Source: a virus (Duplodnaviria > Heunggongvirae > Uroviricota > Caudoviricetes). Taken from it: a DNA stretch of 8,652 nucleotides. The translations under genes and the position numbers were made by a program. Where the stretch lies: the IMG/VR virus record IMGVR_UViG_2648501437_000024, positions 1-8,652 of that record, one strand, 5' to 3'. This document shows, piece after piece, positions 2,853 to 6,356 of the stretch; within the stretch, counting starts at the first letter, position 1, and each line of letters starts with the position of its first letter. The notes below the pieces were generated by a model that worked only from the letters and a program-made list of their open reading frames with translations, searched no databases and had not been told where the DNA came from.

Positions 2853-2885
2853 AATGATTCCATACATAGTAGGTATGGAATCATT
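2853..2885. repeat. 13-bp perfect palindrome AATGATTCCATAC-(7 nt)-GTATGGAATCATT; copy 1 of a motif repeated three times in the window
   Basis: Read directly; followed on the plus strand by the T-run ttgtttttt (2892-2901); lies about 100 nt upstream of the recombinase start. Confidence 0.6.
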
Positions 2886-2935
2886 TAGACGTTGTTTTTT
2901 GAATTTTAAGGGAAATAGGAGTGAGTTTGGTGGGA

Positions 2936-2960
2936 ATAAAAAACGGCTCATGTGAGCCGT
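2936..2960 (-). terminator. rho-independent terminator downstream of the glutaredoxin gene
   Basis: Hairpin ACGGCTCA/TGAGCCGT (2943-2950 and 2953-2960) followed on the minus strand by a T6 tract (plus-strand A-run 2938-2943); starts 6 nt after the grx stop. Confidence 0.5.
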
Positions 2961-2965
2961 TAAAA

Positions 2966-3211
2966 TCAGAGGGTGCTGACGTATGCAGCCAGTTCTGTGT
3001 ATCCGCCAATCGGTTGGCCATCGATCAGTACCTGGGGGATAGTCTCTACCGGTTTACCAACAATTTCACTAAGTTTTTCCTTGTCGATACCGGCAGTGGT
3101 GATGTCGATGTACTCATAATCACCGTAGCCATGTCCCTTTAGTTGCTTCGCCAGCTCGACCGCACGTTTGCAGTATGAGCAGTTATCTCGTCCGTAGATA
3201 GTGATCGTCAT
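2966..3211 (-). CDS. grxA: glutaredoxin (Grx1/GrxA-like, CSYC active site)
   Basis: 81-aa ORF; N-terminal IYGRDNCSYCKRA (CxxC) and C-terminal GKPVETIPQVLIDGQPIGGYTELAAYV closely resemble E. coli glutaredoxin 1 as recalled from memory (GKPVETVPQIFIDQQHIGGYTDFAAWV). Confidence 0.85.
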   Translation of the reverse strand: MTITIYGRDNCSYCKRAVELAKQLKGHGYGDYEYIDITTAGIDKEKLSEIVGKPVETIPQVLIDGQPIGGYTELAAYVSTL

Positions 3212-3384
3212 AACTTAACAAATACCTTTATAAATATTGATTCGAACATATCAGACTATACTACAAACAGATTTTTTTGATAAGTATGTAGTAACTTATT
3301 GATTGACTAGTAAACAATTGAAGTGATTACGACAATAGATTACAGTAAGGATTGCCTTGAAATGTACATTTTATAGAGGTTTTA

Positions 3385-4293
3385 ATGATTGGTAAGTTGT
3401 CTGATTCTTTGATTGAAAATAAATACAACGAATTTAGAGAAGAAATATCTTTGCTTTTTGACTATTTAAATCAGATAAATGATACAACAAAGAAAAATAT
3501 AAAACGTCTTCTTAAAGAAGTGGAGTATGCACAGAATCCAGATACTATTATTAATATTAATGAAACTATTAAGATTAAGTGTGGCACAACGTTAGCTCGC
3601 CATTTATGTTCAAACCCATATACAGGTTCAACATTAGAGATAGGTAACAGCGCCATTGATTTAGAAGAAAAGATAAGATTGTGTAATACTTTGAAAAATA
3701 AACAATATCAGTGGGTTATTACTGAAGCCTATGAGTTACTGGAAGACTATATTGAGGCAATATATGTCTATACTGTATGTGTTCGAAATGATTTATGGTC
3801 CTCAAGTGATTTTGGTAAGGTTGAAGATGATGAAAATGGGAAAAGGGAAGTTTATTACAGATTATTAAAAGCAAAAAGTAACCCATCGAAAAAAATAACT
3901 AAAATTTTCAGAAATAAAATACCTGGCTTCAAAGAGATAGAAACAAACAACAAGATTGGCAAAAACTATCGCTTTAACATCAAGCTAATTGAACTACTAA
4001 GACATACAATAGTACACAATAGTGGACGATTCAATGATACAGAAAAATTTATAAATAAGGTTTTAGATGAATCTGAAATAAACGGTAAGAATAGAGTTAT
4101 TGGAGAAAGAGCTGTTAGAAGTTACATTACTAAAGTGCAAGAAGATGATATTGTGATGCTCTTAGAAAGACCATCTGAAATTTTAGGTTCTTTTGGTGGG
4201 TATTTTAACAGAGCAAAATTTTTACTAAGTGATATTTTAGAATACTCACTAATCATTAAAGAAGAACTAAAATCATATCTAGGCAATCATTAA
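3385..4293 (+). CDS. hypothetical protein, AT-rich, with Rx4H motif (possible HEPN-type RNase / abortive-infection-like protein)
   Basis: 302-aa ORF, the only long plus-strand gene in this stretch; GAGG RBS 5 nt upstream; K/N/I/E-rich protein from visibly AT-rich DNA; motif LLRHTIVHN (R-x4-H) in the C-terminal third; no Walker, HNH or GIY-YIG motif seen. Confidence 0.6.
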   Translation: MIGKLSDSLIENKYNEFREEISLLFDYLNQINDTTKKNIKRLLKEVEYAQNPDTIININETIKIKCGTTLARHLCSNPYTGSTLEIGNSAIDLEEKIRLCNTLKNKQYQWVITEAYELLEDYIEAIYVYTVCVRNDLWSSSDFGKVEDDENGKREVYYRLLKAKSNPSKKITKIFRNKIPGFKEIETNNKIGKNYRFNIKLIELLRHTIVHNSGRFNDTEKFINKVLDESEINGKNRVIGERAVRSYITKVQEDDIVMLLERPSEILGSFGGYFNRAKFLLSDILEYSLIIKEELKSYLGNH

Positions 4294-4294
4294 C

Positions 4295-4324
4295 AAAAAA
4301 GGGGCCGAAGCCCCTTTGGATTTT
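4295..4324. terminator. bidirectional rho-independent terminator (GGGGC-CGAA-GCCCC)
   Basis: GC stem 4301-4305/4310-4314 flanked by A6 (4295-4300) and a TTTGGATTTT tract; the minus-strand reading has a clean T6 tract; sits between the convergent 302-aa gene and the tRNA array. Confidence 0.7.
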
Positions 4325-4330
4325 GCGCTT

Positions 4331-4357
4331 AAAAAAGTGTTGCTAGGATGTTAGCAA
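4331..4357 (-). terminator. weak terminator-like hairpin (TTGCTA/TAGCAA) with T6 tract on the minus strand
   Basis: 6-bp stem 4340-4345/4352-4357 followed on the minus strand by cacTTTTTT; tandem with the stronger terminator at 4295-4324. Confidence 0.3.
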
Positions 4358-4394
4358 GCTATATGGTTAAGAACGTCTGCCGTAATTGTCTATC

Positions 4395-4470
4395 ACAGCG
4401 TTGAGCGGTCTGGTTTATGTTAGCGGAGTCTTAATCGAGTTGTTTAAAAGGCCAAACCGCTCAACGCTGT
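4395..4470 (-). repeat. 15-bp perfect inverted repeat (ACAGCGTTGAGCGGT ... ACCGCTCAACGCTGT) with 46-nt loop; candidate structured RNA element
   Basis: Read directly; begins 3 nt after the CCA end of tRNA-Ser and lies inside the presumed tRNA transcript upstream of the terminators. Confidence 0.6.
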
Positions 4471-4473
4471 GTC

Positions 4474-5117: not shown

Positions 5118-5134
5118 GATGTATGGAATCATTT
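5118..5134 (-). repeat. copy 2 of the repeated motif (minus sense AAATGATTCCATACATC)
   Basis: 17-nt exact match to 6130-6146 and 14-nt exact match to 2873-2886; no Shine-Dalgarno upstream, and the ORF it opens is only 29 codons. Confidence 0.6.
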
Positions 5135-5192
5135 GTTGTGAAAACAGGCACCAATGGCAACAGTGGTTAAACCTACACAACAATCCTGTCTT

Positions 5193-5314
5193 CACAACGT
5201 TGAGGCCACTACTCCGATTGAATGTTTGCCCAACATGTTACATATCAACGCTCGCCGGTATCTCTGTGAATAGAACCTTAGAATTGATAAAAATGTAATG
5301 GCCTCAACGTTGTG
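5193..5314. repeat. 16-bp perfect inverted repeat (CACAACGTTGAGGCCA ... TGGCCTCAACGTTGTG) flanking 90 bp
   Basis: Read directly (5193-5208 and 5299-5314); the arms share the core ACA-R-CGTTGAG with the 15-bp inverted repeat at 4395-4470. Confidence 0.6.
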
Positions 5315-5398
5315 TGCTGGCTAACCATACCAGCCGGGCTACGTCGCCGCTTTTTAACCCAGTATAAACGACATAATTGAACAAAATGACGTAACAGG

Positions 5399-5461
5399 AT
5401 GGGCGGTCAGAGGCTAAGAATCCGGGAGTCATATGGAGTTGAAAATATACCGACCGCCCAT
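5399..5461. repeat. 10-bp perfect inverted repeat (ATGGGCGGTC ... GACCGCCCAT) with 43-nt loop
   Basis: Read directly (5399-5408 and 5452-5461) in the ORF-free region. Confidence 0.5.
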
Positions 5462-5475
5462 TCTGTTACTTCATC

Positions 5476-5499
5476 GGAGGGAACACTCATGTTCCCTCC
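5476..5499. other. GC-rich stem-loop GGAGGGAAC-actcat-GTTCCCTCC (9-bp perfect stem, 6-nt loop)
   Basis: Read directly; no adjacent U-tract on either strand, so probably not a terminator; possible RNA stability or processing element, or a protein-binding palindrome. Confidence 0.5.
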
Positions 5500-5667
5500 T
5501 GCGTTCTGCAATCACACTCGCTCAGTGTGTCCCATTTCGGTAACGAGGCTGGAAACTGACCTCGCTGGTGTTTGGCTTATTAGGCTACTGCCAGATAGAC
5601 TTCTTCGTTTGCACTTGTATTTAAGTTCAAACAGTCGCGTCTCAACGAAAACAAAGTCATCTTATAC

Positions 5668-5695
5668 ATAAAAGATAAGTAAGTAAATACTTATC
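5668..5695 (-). terminator. weak terminator-like hairpin downstream of the 96-aa gene
   Basis: 8-bp AT-rich stem GATAAGTA/TACTTATC (5674-5681 and 5688-5695) followed on the minus strand by TTTT; the low-GC stem makes this doubtful. Confidence 0.25.
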
Positions 5696-5704
5696 ACTAT
5701 GTTT

Positions 5705-5995
5705 TTATTCGGTTGTAACTTTTTTGATCAAGGCCACTCTACGATCAGGTGTTCTTGTGATGGTGGCAGTGAATCGTTTCGCTTGGATAGTAATGGTTTC
5801 GTTCTCCTTAAGTTGCCCGTAGCGAGTTTCCACCAGGGTACCAAGACGCCACAGACCATCATCGATACGTTTATGACTAGCAAATTTAATAAGCAACAGT
5901 TTTACGACTAACTGACCTACGTAAAAGGCGAATGCGACTCCGGCCGCTAAGAAATAGGTGGCCAACCACCAGTCCCAAGAAGTTAAATTGCTCAT
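5705..5995 (-). CDS. hypothetical small membrane protein (96 aa, hydrophobic N-terminal segment)
   Basis: Track ORF; AAGG RBS about 7 nt upstream; its ATG overlaps the TGA of the upstream 50-aa ORF (ATGA); WDWWLATYFLAAGVAFAFYVGQLVV looks like a transmembrane helix. Confidence 0.6.
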   Translation of the reverse strand: MSNLTSWDWWLATYFLAAGVAFAFYVGQLVVKLLLIKFASHKRIDDGLWRLGTLVETRYGQLKENETITIQAKRFTATITRTPDRRVALIKKVTTE

Positions 5996-6144
5996 TTTCT
6001 AACCTTTGTTTCATGAACTACCCGATACACACGCTTTCCGATGCACAGTGTTTTGGTTTTAAGTTCCTGCTTAATTAAATCACGACAGATGCCGAAGCCG
6101 ATAAGGAAGCCACCCATAAAAGCTAATGAGATGTATGGAATCAT
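5992..6144 (-). CDS. hypothetical small membrane protein (50 aa), below the ORF-track length cutoff
   Basis: Hand translation: MIPYISLAFMGGFLIGFGICRDLIKQELKTKTLCIGKRVYRVVHETKVRK; AGGAG RBS 7 nt upstream; ATGA overlaps with both flanking genes; its start carries repeat copy 3. Confidence 0.5.
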   Translation of the reverse strand: MIPYISLAFMGGFLIGFGICRDLIKQELKTKTLCIGKRVYRVVHETKVRK

Positions 6145-6146
6145 TT
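6130..6146 (-). repeat. copy 3 of the repeated motif (minus sense AAATGATTCCATACATC), containing the start codon of the 50-aa ORF
   Basis: 17-nt exact match to 5118-5134. Confidence 0.6.
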
Positions 6147-6356
6147 TAACACTCCTGATTCTACTAATTGCTGTAGCAATACTTTCCCTTTATCAGTTAA
6201 CTGGTAGTTGGCCGAACACTTCGTTTCAGAAACGTTTGCAACCAACCCTAAACGCTCTAACTTAGCTCGCGTTTTAGGCTTCCAGTACTCAGGGAACTCC
6301 GGCCACTTACTGATTTCATGAAGCGTTTCCTTCTCCCGTTTACTTAATACGATCAT
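6141..6356 (-). CDS. hypothetical protein (71 aa)
   Basis: Track ORF; strong AGGAG RBS 7 nt upstream of the ATG at 6356; stop overlaps the start of the 50-aa ORF. Confidence 0.6.
   Translation of the reverse strand: MIVLSKREKETLHEISKWPEFPEYWKPKTRAKLERLGLVANVSETKCSANYQLTDKGKVLLQQLVESGVLK

Follow-up and report, generated by a model that had tools for sequence, protein, structure and literature searches.

The repeated motif described here is best explained as the recognition arm of the core site of a neighbouring tyrosine recombinase, a reading to which we assign, together with the function and the orphan half-sites discussed below, a probability of roughly 70%. The window, i.e. the whole stretch of 8,652 nucleotides that was analysed, comes from a plasmid-prophage of the SSU5/pHCM2/pMT1 family, a circular element. 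The features are collected in Table 1. The full site appears to be a previously undescribed lox/dif-like recombination site, located next to the tyrosine recombinase gene in phage-plasmids of this type.

Table 1. Position of the sites and neighbouring features in the window
Feature	Position	Strand	Description
Tyrosine recombinase gene ("integrase", 367 aa)	1651-2754	-	Presumed enzyme for the site; Pfam, AlphaFold, structural matches
LexA (SOS) box	2783-2798		CTGT-N8-ACAG, directly downstream of the recombinase -10
Putative sigma-70-like recombinase promoter	2800-2828	-	-35 TTGATC (2823-2828), 17-nt spacer, -10 TAATAT (2800-2805)
Full core site	2853-2885		Two inverted 13-bp arms and a 7-bp spacer
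Proximal arm	2853-2865		AATGATTCCATAC, 13 bp
Spacer	2866-2872		ATAGTAG, asymmetric, 7 bp
Distal arm	2873-2885		GTATGGAATCATT, 13 bp
Distal flank, semi-conserved	2886-2915		T-rich stretch, then box; column composition of 117 unique flanks
Intrinsic terminator of glutaredoxin gene	2942-2961	-	8-bp stem, 5 G-C pairs, T-run
Orphan half-site, copy 2	5118-5132	-	ATGATTCCATACATC; in a conserved non-coding stretch flanked by the 96-aa gene and the tRNA cluster
50-aa small membrane-protein gene	5992-6144	-	First 15 nt are copy 3; phrog_6302, no assigned function
Orphan half-site, copy 3	6130-6144	-	ATGATTCCATACATC; first five codons (MIPYI) of the 50-aa gene, start codon included

A scan of the window detected exact copies of AAATGATTCCATAC at 2873-2886, 5121-5134 and 6133-6146 on the minus strand (copies 1 to 3) and, on the plus strand, a copy with one mismatch at 2852-2865. 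With up to two mismatches AATGATTCCATAC has four copies in the window (0.11 expected by chance), and four matches were reached in none of 200 dinucleotide shuffles of the window, which bears out the original prediction that chance is a very unlikely source of three exact 14-mers. Copies 2 and 3 have 21 of 22 nt in common (17 exact). Two complete relatives, CMS-2020a (107.6 kb) and pJN2-26 (110 kb), have five copies at two or fewer mismatches and five exact 12-mers (0.03 expected), respectively, and in both genomes all copies are inside one 10-12 kb region. The MIPY reading frames of 19 and 29 codons at copies 1 and 2 and the ATG and MIPYI start of the 50-aa ORF at copy 3 are as described earlier. 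Copy 1, which had been taken for a contiguous 13-bp palindrome, is actually an inverted repeat interrupted by 7 bp, and forms the full site 99 bp upstream of the recombinase gene.

The geometry of the full site is like that of loxP, FRT, dif and the lambda core site. Each of the inverted 13-bp arms would bind one recombinase monomer, and strand exchange would take place within the 7-bp asymmetric spacer. The arm-7-arm site adjoins a recombinase homologue (59-100% identity) in about 100 viral contigs, where the repeat is 96-100 bp upstream of the gene, except for the most divergent group with a distance of 43-45 bp. Among Enterobacterales species genomes, plasmids that are not phages included, the site was found beside a recombinase homologue in 57 of 58, with the repeat 42-150 bp upstream and recombinase identities of 45-86%. 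The inverted repeat and the homologue were adjacent in every informative locus, and contigs of Xenorhabdus, Providencia, Erwinia and Pantoea that were found via the protein alone also carry the repeat. The spacer is 7 nt long in all occurrences, and a search for spacers of 0-6 or 8-30 nt between the arms gave 0 matches; more than 12 different spacer sequences were seen, and the spacer orientation also varies.

The arms, searched for with a pattern that permitted 16 combinations, are TGACTCCAGAC/GTCTGGAGTCA in 49 genomes (distant homologues), TGATTCCATAC/GTATGGAATCA in 7 genomes and asymmetric in one genome (L136); Photorhabdus has an asymmetric arm intermediate. Both arms thus change together in the distant homologues, and the arm sequence follows the divergence of the recombinase. 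The shared binding site that was one option of the original prediction is thus upheld, in that the motif is the arm of a putative protein-recognition site which travels and co-varies with the tyrosine recombinase family. The recombinase, which had been named as a candidate binder, fits this reading. The XRE regulator is unlikely to bind the motif, given that non-phage plasmids without an XRE neighbour still have the site beside the recombinase gene.

We consider it quite unlikely that the inverted repeat is only an operator, used for recombinase autoregulation or by the divergent XRE gene, or a terminator hairpin, with the single copies as further operators. The site does lie upstream of the putative recombinase promoter, about 25 bp from its -35 box, the XRE gene is syntenic with the recombinase gene in phage-plasmids, the repeat forms a 13-bp hairpin (-11.1 kcal/mol as DNA, z = -6.6) and a T-run follows the site on the plus strand. 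However, the T-run begins 10 nt past the stem, so copy 1 was rejected as a canonical terminator, and the T-run is missing in many lineages. Moreover, the stem sequence is conserved and not the pairing alone, and the loop length never varies, which is atypical of terminators. The repeat is not needed to terminate the glutaredoxin gene either, since this gene has its own terminator upstream of the site (minus strand). Against an operator stand the loci in which the site remains with the recombinase gene where XRE is absent and the arms that follow the divergence of the recombinase, whereas autoregulation by the recombinase is compatible with a core site and not an alternative to it.

The presumed enzyme matches Pfam Phage_integrase (2.9e-10), with Phage_int_M below the cutoff, and its AlphaFold model has a pLDDT of 82. 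The best PDB structural matches of the model are the core-binding and catalytic domains of lambda Int (E 4e-7), and further matches are Xer, XerH, XerA, Tn1549 Int and IntI. Residues R185, K211, R284/R285 and Y316/Y321 are conserved. The DUF4102 arm-binding domain was not found in the recombinase; outgroup sequences carry it. The protein, which groups with P4/lambda-like integrases and is not an IntI orthologue, has the fold of a tyrosine recombinase; its core-binding domain is helical, and an arm-binding domain is absent. We note that the first His of the HxxR box is Arg in the recombinase, a substitution that is conserved across the family and that counts against our best explanation.

The promoter of the recombinase gene is a sequence-based assignment: the TTGATC-17-TAATAT arrangement also occurs in a Klebsiella relative, and a strict consensus promoter scan of the window did not pick it up. 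In 98 enteric phage-plasmid loci TACTGT-N8-ACAGTA is found 52-54 nt from the inverted repeat, with an N8 that varies widely. No LexA box was found in the plasmid-type loci, nor in the group with 59% recombinase identity.

An orphan half-site consists of one arm plus ATC. Besides copies 2 and 3 there is a third single copy just outside the window, antisense inside the polIII-alpha gene, and all three point toward the full site. No second arm was found at 7-8 nt from copy 2, copy 3 overlaps the TGA stop of an upstream 71-aa ORF, and the 7 nt beside the single copies (ATCWCAT) differ from the spacer of the full site. Throughout the enteric lineages the orphan copies keep the same three positions. 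Copy 2 stands out as an invariant island, the rest of its region being 70-75% identical; when its place was located by flanking anchors alone, the exact 15-mer was present in 18 of 20 unique sequences, and SSU5, in which the recombinase is lost, is one of the two exceptions. In the 50-aa genes, located by homology, codons 2-4 each use a single codon in 25 of 25 unique sequences, and codon 5 does so in 96%, compared with about 50-90% for the major codon of the other conserved residues. Similarly, C84, E86 and S87 of polIII-alpha have one codon each in 34 unique sequences. The orphan copies are thus under nucleotide-level constraint, synonymous codon positions included, and are not decaying. The polIII copy is absent in distant phage-plasmids with different arms, where the protein reads KEAGETQLPVNR vs KESMRCMESLER, and a search of TGACTCCAGAC-type loci, about 0.5 Mb in total, gave no orphan copies.

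The earlier idea that the copies are recombination scars at a shared gene 5' end is not borne out, as copies 2 and 3 have fixed, conserved positions in every enteric relative, the polIII-alpha copy is antisense in its gene, and the copies are constrained. Cassette shuffling at copies 2 and 3 fares no better: the gene order is kept across them and no rearrangement ends there. Selection that acts on the DNA as such keeps the orphan half-sites constant, and the most economical reading is that they bind single recombinase monomers. We know of no established role for half-sites kilobases from the core site in lox/dif-type systems. The orphan copies of SSU5 are still exact at two of the three places, so the half-sites may be conserved independently of the recombinase.

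Two further readings concern the single copies. It is very improbable that they act as RNA, i.e. that the copy 2 RNA and the initiation region of the 50-aa gene (AUGAUUCCAUACAUC) pair with the polIII-alpha mRNA, and in some lineages also with the recombinase mRNA, coupling the expression of these genes, or that MIPYI is a functional leader peptide. Right of the site the copies are in sense orientation with an AUG at their start, and left of it they run antisense to their genes, hence the transcripts are complementary over 15-20 nt, and several lineages have a mini-ORF of 5-6 codons, MIPYI(Q)-stop, at copy 2. But this mini-ORF is not conserved in length (29 codons in the window), copy 2 has no Shine-Dalgarno sequence, no Rfam family was matched in the window, and neither the identity with the recombinase-site arms nor the restriction to the clade with those arms is explained. 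We give hardly any credence to the idea that the copies are a coding coincidence or remnants of duplicated gene starts, from paralogous small membrane-protein genes sharing a MIPYI start. A real gene does start at copy 3, MIPY frames open at copies 1 and 2 as well, and there are several small membrane-protein genes in the region; yet this reading was rejected, as it is contradicted by the antisense polIII-alpha copy, whose protein segment is not conserved in distant relatives, by the invariant synonymous sites, and by the non-coding copy 2 being the most conserved block of the region. Same-sequence arms around a 7-nt spacer beside the recombinase gene in hundreds of genomes are also against it.

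The site is a fixed border between a conserved block and a hypervariable cargo region. In 22 near-identical E. coli-group loci the 1.5 kb on the recombinase side form 1 cluster, the distal 1.5 kb 13 clusters. The proposal that the motif marks cassette boundaries therefore holds for copy 1 only, not for copies 2 and 3. Beyond the site lies the caf1 (F1 capsule) operon in Yersinia pestis pFra and a different chaperone-usher operon in PhiR41_1. In the distal flank, about 18-26 bp past the 11-nt arm core, there is a box with the family consensus GAAWWYTRR (117 unique flanks, whole family), here GAATTTTAA, which is a possible accessory element. Given this conserved box, the apparent breakpoint exactly at the arm is in part the result of fast-diverging alleles of a longer site.

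Such a border could also mean that the recombinase inserts foreign circles with a half-site-like sequence at the inverted repeat, an SOS-controlled, integron-like platform for cargo capture, which we regard as unlikely. The repeat would then be an attI-like entry point, the full site would be regenerated next to the recombinase gene, a single distal-arm copy would be left at the far end of the insert, and the right-hand single copies would be products or targets of such events. The order of recombinase gene, LexA-controlled promoter, site and variable cargo (the operons of pFra and PhiR41_1) agrees with this, every single copy to the right of the site is oriented like the distal arm, as predicted, the fimbrial insert of PhiR41_1 has the full site on one side and an extra single copy in distal-arm orientation on the other, and the same distal-flank classes occur with different recombinase lineages. 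On the other hand, there are no sites between individual cargo genes, copies 2 and 3 are backbone features in all lineages and not insert ends, and ATCWCAT does not match the full-site spacer. Furthermore, the mappable mosaic junction is in the conserved glutaredoxin gene (L062) and so suggests homologous recombination, no source could be traced for the PhiR41_1 insert, and distal flanks that keep a conserved box are alleles of the site and not foreign DNA.

Read as a core site, the system can be compared with Cre/loxP of P1 (and Dre/rox, VCre/VloxP and Vika/vox). In both cases a plasmid-prophage codes for a "simple" tyrosine recombinase without an arm-binding domain, the site with its perfect 13-bp inverted arms and short asymmetric spacer is beside the gene, multimer resolution and circularisation are expected, and the site is a recombination hotspot of the genome. 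However, the spacer is 7 bp here and 8 bp in loxP, the recombinase sequence had no match in the PDB and thus no sequence similarity to Cre, and the Foldseek E is about 0.04-0.1 for Cre vs 4e-7 for lambda Int. The LexA-controlled promoter, the conserved flanking box and the conserved orphan half-sites kilobases away are further differences; to our knowledge, loxP systems do not have orphan half-sites. The XerCD sites dif, cer and psi, XerH/difH and XerS/difSL share inverted 11-13 bp arms, a 6-8 bp centre, replicon dimer resolution as the function and a related fold, and cer and psi also have accessory sequences beside the core. In contrast to Xer systems, here the element itself, not the host, codes for the recombinase, next to the site, the arm sequences are not related to those of dif or cer, and nothing points to a dependence on FtsK, PepA or ArgR.

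In TnpI/IRS (Tn4430), ResD/rfsF (plasmid F) and Rsd/crs (Salmonella virulence plasmids) the resolution site is immediately upstream of the tyrosine recombinase gene. The layout is alike, i.e. a plasmid- or transposon-coded recombinase with the site directly upstream of its own gene. IRS consists of a core inverted repeat and extra recombinase-binding repeats that act as accessory sites. The accessory motifs of these systems lie within about 100 bp of the core, whereas here the extra copies are 2-6 kb off and embedded in genes. The integron (IntI, attI and the LexA-regulated Pint) is similar in that the tyrosine recombinase gene is transcribed away from the adjoining site, with a LexA box in the promoter, variable cargo beyond the site and IntI among the structural matches, but here there are no attC-like sites between cargo genes, the cargo has the size of operons, with tRNAs among its genes, a symmetric inverted repeat of double-stranded DNA stands in place of attI, and the recombinase belongs to another lineage than IntI. 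The core sites of lambda-family integrases (COC'/BOB', 7-bp overlap) share the 7-bp central region, and these enzymes provide the best structural match and the Phage_int_M core-binding domain. They differ in their N-terminal arm-binding domain and in their degenerate 7-9 bp core sites, as opposed to the perfect and long arms here, and the present element was never seen integrated: no split sites of the attL/attR type turned up in the species genomes.

On plasmids and megaplasmids only intact two-arm sites were found. The recombinase and its intact site occur also on ordinary plasmids and megaplasmids, therefore recombining two copies of the site is its most likely job. SSU5, a viable phage, has neither the recombinase nor the full site; lytic growth, at least, can therefore do without the system. 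In enteric phage-plasmids the LexA box on the recombinase promoter leads us to expect SOS induction of the enzyme, and the recombinase would thus be SOS-induced in this group. By analogy with known systems and from the genomic context, multimer resolution or genome circularisation is the most likely function: the recombinase would recombine two copies of the site and so resolve plasmid multimers, and possibly it would also circularise virion DNA with terminal redundancy, a task that Cre-lox carries out for P1.

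Escherichia phage CMS-2020a and Cyrano, the phage-plasmid of LF82, match the window at 98% identity, and Klebsiella phage pJN2-26 and Salmonella phage SSU5 are more distant relatives (74-79%), so the window is a piece of an SSU5/pHCM2/pMT1-type phage-plasmid. Homology to these relatives begins at position 95, and the preceding segment is the terminal part of an IS2 element that matches the IS2 copies of many phages at 98-100% identity, which means that the gene of the CobT-like protein was cut short by an IS2 insertion in this genome. The 302-aa ORF, for which no Pfam or PADLOC match was found, is present in CMS-2020a and has another gene in its place in Cyrano; by this comparison it can be regarded as a typical variable cargo gene. 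The tRNA cluster is 89-91% identical to that of P1, P7 and D6, phage-plasmids unrelated to the family of the window, which suggests that the module was exchanged between phage-plasmid families. A segment upstream of and overlapping tRNA-Ser, mostly within a stretch without counterpart in Cyrano, resembles the enterobacterial sRNA STnc100, below the Rfam threshold (44.8 bits against a gathering score of 47, E 2.6e-7). The cluster is flanked by two long hairpins whose 20-nt arms are related to each other, and the arm CTCAACGTTGTG is kept across lineages. The 50-aa and 59-aa proteins (phrog_6302 and phrog_4381, both families without assigned function) look like paralogues by eye, i.e. each has an N-terminal hydrophobic helix followed by G-K/R-R-V/I-Y-R-V/I-V.

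Table. Genes, sites and structural elements of the window
Feature	Position	Strand	Remarks
End of IS2	1-94		
Truncated CobT-like protein gene	45-707	minus	220 aa, about 700 aa in Cyrano
70-aa protein gene		minus	
Tyrosine recombinase ("integrase") gene	1651-2754	minus	367 aa
LexA box	2783-2798		CTGT-ATAAGTAA-ACAG
Full site (copy 1)	2853-2885		arms 2853-2865 and 2873-2885, spacer 2866-2872
T-rich stretch and GAAWWYTRR box	2886-2915		distal flank of the full site
Terminator	2942-2961		
XRE-type regulator gene		plus	
302-aa ORF	3385-4293	plus	low GC; opposite to neighbours; phrog_35492 (function unassigned)
Long hairpin	4394-4471		arms CACAGCGTTGAGCGGTCTGG...CCAAACCGCTCAACGCTGTG, 38-nt loop
tRNA-Ser(TGA)/tRNA-Thr(TGT)/tRNA-Asn(GTT) cluster	4474-4926	minus	
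STnc100-like segment	4522-4706	minus	sub-threshold
Copy 2	5118-5132		non-coding
Long hairpin	5193-5314		arms CACAACGTTGAGGCCACTAC...GTAATGGCCTCAACGTTGTG, 82-nt loop
50-aa protein gene	5992-6144	minus	small membrane protein
Copy 3	6130-6144		start of the 50-aa gene
59-aa protein gene	6340-6519	minus	
Glutaredoxin, several small membrane proteins, ATP-dependent ligase, others		minus	

The 14-mer AAATGATTCCATAC occurs exactly at 2873-2886, 5121-5134 and 6133-6146 (minus strand), and a copy with one mismatch lies on the plus strand at 2852-2865. With up to two mismatches allowed the window has four matches where 0.11 are expected, and not one of 200 shuffles gave as many, which bears out the original prediction that three exact 14-mers are improbable by chance. 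Between copies 2 and 3, 21 of 22 nt are identical, and copy 3 is, as had been proposed, the start of the 50-aa gene. Copy 1 had been described as a perfect palindrome; the inverted duplication is real, but it is not contiguous, as the 7-nt ATAGTAG interrupts it. In the complete genome of CMS-2020a the 13-mer is found, at up to two mismatches, five times only and always inside 10.5 kb, i.e. as the two arms of copy 1, as copies 2 and 3, and as an opposite-strand copy inside the polIII-alpha gene. Klebsiella phage pJN2-26 is similar, with five exact 12-mers (0.03 expected).

The inverted repeat at copy 1, hereafter the full site, consists of two perfect 13-bp arms around a 7-nt spacer, AATGATTCCATAC-ATAGTAG-GTATGGAATCATT, and an arm core of 11-13 bp is kept in more than 150 loci. 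When viral contigs were scanned for arm-N7-arm, 100 loci came up, and no arm pairs with a spacing of N0-6 or N8-30 were found in the viral scans. In every viral locus with enough DNA a homologue of the recombinase (59-100% identical) lies 96-100 bp from the repeat, the start of the gene being 43-45 bp away in the most divergent viral group. The spacer takes more than 12 different sequences, none of them palindromic, and these include the lineage-specific ATAGTAG, TTAATAG, CTACCAA, CTTACAA, TATATAA, TTACATA, CTAAAGA and TTTATAG.

Distant homologues of the recombinase (44-52% identity) were collected by protein search alone, and their contigs were then examined. An arm-7-arm repeat stands 19-152 bp upstream of the gene in Xenorhabdus and Providencia phage-plasmids, Erwinia plasmids and Pantoea megaplasmids, and its arms are altered at two positions in both halves (TGACTCCAGAC-N7-GTCTGGAGTCA). 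Photorhabdus has asymmetric intermediate arms, and intermediates are also seen in Biostraticola. A degenerate scan of one genome per species, in which 16 arm combinations were allowed, found the site in 58 genomes, all of them Enterobacterales. The C/G type is present in both arms in 49 genomes, the T/T type in both arms in 7, and one genome is asymmetric. A homologue of the recombinase is adjacent in 57 of the 58 (42-150 bp away), as it is in all informative viral loci. Arms of the type TGATTCCATAC go with recombinases of 56-100% identity and arms of the type TGACTCCAGAC with those of 44-52%. In other words, the specificity of the site changes together with the recombinase and each change is mirrored in both arms, a co-variation that amounts in effect to one evolutionary switch in a sample that is not independent.

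The strict spacing, the conservation of the arm sequence, the mirrored arm changes that track the enzyme and the linkage across unrelated replicons mark the full site, by the criteria of sequence, as the probable core site of a tyrosine recombinase of the lox/FRT/dif type. By the same four features it is unlike a terminator or a generic hairpin. A Rho-independent terminator is also disfavoured by the stem, which is A+T-rich, and by the T-run, which lies 10 nt past the stem and is missing in many lineages; a terminator scan did not report the repeat, though it reported the real terminator nearby. Rfam gave no match at the full site or at copies 2 and 3, its matches elsewhere being the tRNAs and sub-threshold ones only. 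The XRE-type regulator had been put forward as a possible binder; the repeat persists in Erwinia and Pantoea loci that have neither phage genes nor an XRE neighbour, which excludes this protein as the reason for the repeat. A site at the replication terminus was considered as well; the GC skew is uniformly negative and hence uninformative, and the site of pJN2-26 is about 17.6 kb from repB, not opposite it.

The functional site may be longer than 33 bp. Among 117 unique distal flanks of the whole family (the distal side being the cargo side, away from the recombinase gene) the sequence is non-random, i.e. GAAWWYTRR is found at +18 to +26 past the 11-nt arm core, following a T-rich stretch in the window and in the homologous flanks (loci L006-L175). 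The box is also present in the Pantoea and Erwinia plasmids, there often as GAAATCTGAG, and it may be an accessory protein-binding element. The spacer occurs both ways round, as seen in the window and loci L002, L051, L053 and L132: it is CTACTAT in PhiR41_1 (L002) and ATAGTAG in L051 with both flanks identical, and CTATTAA in L053 where its relatives have TTAATAG. Across species both orientations relative to the gene are found (CTATTAA in 27 genomes, the reverse complement TTAATAG in 13). Given that the arms are perfectly symmetric, resolution should not depend on which way round the site stands relative to the gene.

The recombinase matches the Pfam Phage_integrase catalytic domain (PF00589) and, weakly, the Phage_int_M core-binding domain. 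In an alignment of 18 homologues the catalytic Arg, Lys, Arg and Tyr positions are conserved (R185, K211, R284/R285, Y316/Y321). The HxxR box at residues about 279-287 reads P/T-R-D-L-R-R-T family-wide, i.e. the first His is replaced by Arg, and the P4-like outgroups retain HDLRRT. In the AlphaFold model (pLDDT 82) the N-terminus is short and the first 120 residues are all-helical. The best Foldseek match is to the core-binding and catalytic domains of lambda Int (E 4e-7), followed by Xer, Tn1549 Int, XerH and IntI. The arm-binding domain DUF4102 (PF13356) was not found in the family and is present in the nearest P4-like outgroups (P0114 and P0117). The missing arm-binding domain, the helical N-terminus and the lambda Int-like core argue for a "simple" recombinase, for which the core site alone should suffice. 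A fourth, near-copy of the motif, TTGATTCCATACAT followed by C or T, lies inside the recombinase gene in the pHCM2, pMT1 and Klebsiella lineages and is partly forced by the conserved W-N-Q codons.

Three known groups were considered for the enzyme. A place in the Cre-like family (Cre, Dre, VCre, Vika, Panto, Nigri) is rejected, as a sequence search of PDB chains gave no match at E<=1 and Cre is far behind lambda Int, Xer and Tn1549 Int in Foldseek (E 0.04-0.17); the likeness to Cre-lox is one of logic, a predicted simple recombinase with a core site. An integrative integrase of the lambda/P4 type would have the arm-binding domain and leave split attL/attR-type halves, and the 58 genomes contain intact two-arm sites only. 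Integrons have in common with this system only LexA control and layout, whereas no repeated site is found between the cargo genes and the protein groups with P4/lambda-like integrases and not with the IntI type. The literature search returned no paper with the arm sequences in a relevant context and nothing relevant on integrase function in SSU5/pHCM2/pMT1 elements, and the papers on SSU5-like phage-plasmids that were checked omit the site of the integrase. The pair of recombinase and site adds a new member to a well-known class, that of a tyrosine recombinase with its core site.

Elements of the SSU5/pHCM2/pMT1 type are circular plasmids in the lysogen. From this circular state, the presence of the gene-site pair on ordinary large plasmids and the finding of intact sites only, we infer recombination of site with site rather than chromosomal integration. 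Two copies of the site would recombine, which would lead to multimer resolution; a further possible role is the circularisation of terminally redundant virion DNA by recombination, as it takes place in P1. Between the site and the gene there is a putative promoter (TTGATC-17-TAATAT), conserved in Klebsiella, with the LexA box just downstream of its -10. In 98 loci of enteric phage-plasmids the LexA box keeps a distance of 52-54 nt to the site while its N8 is highly varied, and this fixed distance indicates that the recombinase is probably SOS-induced in the enteric phage-plasmid clade. The box is absent from the loci of the plasmid-type relatives.

The two sides of the full site differ strongly in variability. 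The recombinase genes of 22 loci of the E. coli group are near-identical; in these loci the 1.5 kb towards the gene form 1 cluster and the 1.5 kb on the far side 13 clusters. In Yersinia pestis pFra (L109, 10224-16013) the caf1R-caf1M-caf1A-caf1 operon of the F1 capsule is directly distal to the site and stands in place of the cargo, tRNA and copy 2 of pHCM2. PhiR41_1 (10755-16676), an E. coli relative, has a different, AraC-regulated chaperone-usher operon at the place of caf1, bracketed by the full site and one extra single arm copy. According to a published pangenome analysis (PMC9600943), resistance genes have inserted beside PhoH and DNA ligase in SSU5_pHCM2 phage-plasmids, and this locus is the neighbourhood of the full site. 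The cluster counts, the operons and the published insertions together point to the full site as the fixed proximal border of an accessory hotspot. The proposal that the motif marks cassette boundaries thus holds for the full site and not for the single copies outside it (the orphan copies), at which no rearrangement was found to end among the related loci. A search of 5,426 E. coli genomes, aimed at an attB-like junction, gave no close donor of the PhiR41_1 fimbrial insert, and only 19 nt of the extra copy are similar to anything else.

Other rearrangements lie elsewhere. The orphan copies are not mosaic breakpoints: the one junction that could be mapped, in the mosaic genome L062, is inside the glutaredoxin gene, which indicates ordinary homologous exchange, and in L077 identity changes at the full site. 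SSU5 is without the whole module (70-aa gene, XRE regulator, recombinase, site and cargo) and has 30 unrelated bases (L007 13616-13645) where it sits in pHCM2, pMT1 and the E. coli and Klebsiella relatives. This loss was not a site-specific deletion, as neither endpoint has the motif; no PLSDB plasmid shares the junction. The right-hand endpoint of the deletion is, in pHCM2, between the arms of a long hairpin of the kind that flanks the tRNA cluster and unrelated to the motif.

No second arm stands at a distance of 7-8 nt from copy 2, copy 3 or the polIII copy, so these are true half-sites. Related loci totalling about 1 Mb have the motif outside the full site only at these three positions, with two exceptions: in the 59%-identity group a diverged homologue stands in the place of copy 2, and PhiR41_1 has its extra copy. 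The orphan core is ATGATTCCATACATC. For the codon analysis the genes were located by homology, replacing a motif-based selection that was biased. The polIII residues C84, E86 and S87 use the single codons TGT, GAA and TCA in 34 of 34 unique sequences; for most other conserved polIII residues the major codon is used in only 35-75%. Codons 2-4 of the 50-aa gene are likewise single in 25 of 25. Copy 2 is the sole invariant block of a non-coding region that is 70-75% identical, and when located by flanking anchors alone it is the exact 15-mer in 18 of 20 unique sequences. One of the two exceptions is SSU5, which alone among the relatives has lost the recombinase module, by an unrelated deletion. 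The invariant codons and the invariant copy 2 argue that the orphan copies are maintained at the DNA level.

The polIII segment at the motif is KESMRCMESLER in the enteric elements and KEAGETQLPVNR in the Xenorhabdus and Providencia elements, which have other arms and no motif copy in polIII. As the peptide differs where the arms differ and the motif is missing, the DNA motif appears to dictate the peptide and not the reverse. Loci of the other arm type, about 0.5 Mb in all, contain no orphan copies.

The copies had been suggested to be either scars of modular recombination, in which cassettes were shuffled at a common gene 5' end, or a common binding site. Fixed positions without rearrangement ends speak against scars, and relics of duplicated gene starts are contradicted by the conservation of the codons and of copy 2. 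The simplest hypothesis is that the orphan copies are bound by the same recombinase, because they are identical to the arms at both clade-specific positions and occur only in the clade with those arms; we consider its chances about even. They could serve as secondary recombination targets, or as polar barriers or guides; a further candidate is pairing of sense with antisense copies at the RNA level. Copies left of the full site are all on the plus strand and those right of it all on the minus strand, i.e. they converge on the site, yet the genes on both sides run one way. With only three or four copies this convergence is suggestive and not significant. An invertible segment between inverted orphan copies is discounted by the gene orientation, which is the same in all of roughly 170 loci. 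It was also considered whether the polIII copy co-varies with copy 2 or 3 in the bases past the motif; this was dismissed, as the extension varies freely across lineages and the 20-nt identity between these copies in E. coli phages is a coincidence. A sigma-70 promoter overlapping copy 2 is not favoured, as Klebsiella and pHCM2 do not conserve the TATAAAT that stands beside this copy in the window.

One system could comprise both the full site and the orphan half-sites with their common orientation, a reading to which we give a probability of roughly 0.12. In it, an SOS-induced recombinase would act at a lox-like point of entry and exchange for virulence and fitness genes, among them the Y. 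pestis F1 capsule operon, in the pHCM2/pMT1/SSU5 phage-plasmids, and the orphans would be functional recombinase-binding elements. The orphan arms, which are embedded in a tolerant polIII-alpha loop, in the start of a small membrane-protein gene and in non-coding DNA, would be secondary targets, polar barriers, or guides by which events are concentrated at the site. We know of no described lox, dif or res system with conserved, oriented orphan half-sites embedded in genes, nor, among lox/dif-type systems, of the function that they hint at; a DNA motif that apparently sets amino acids of a replication protein is unusual.

Phage-plasmids of this family, with their cargo of resistance and virulence genes, are common in E. 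coli, Klebsiella, Salmonella Typhi and Yersinia pestis. The recombinase-site pair offers a testable mechanism for how they stay monomeric and stable, and an account of why the locus of caf1 and of fimbrial operons in E. coli relatives is the cargo hotspot. With its 13-7-13 site and two natural specificities it is also a candidate orthogonal recombinase/target pair for genome engineering. If the one-system reading is true, phage-plasmids would have their own counterpart of the integron platform, and its long-range accessory half-sites would be of a new kind.
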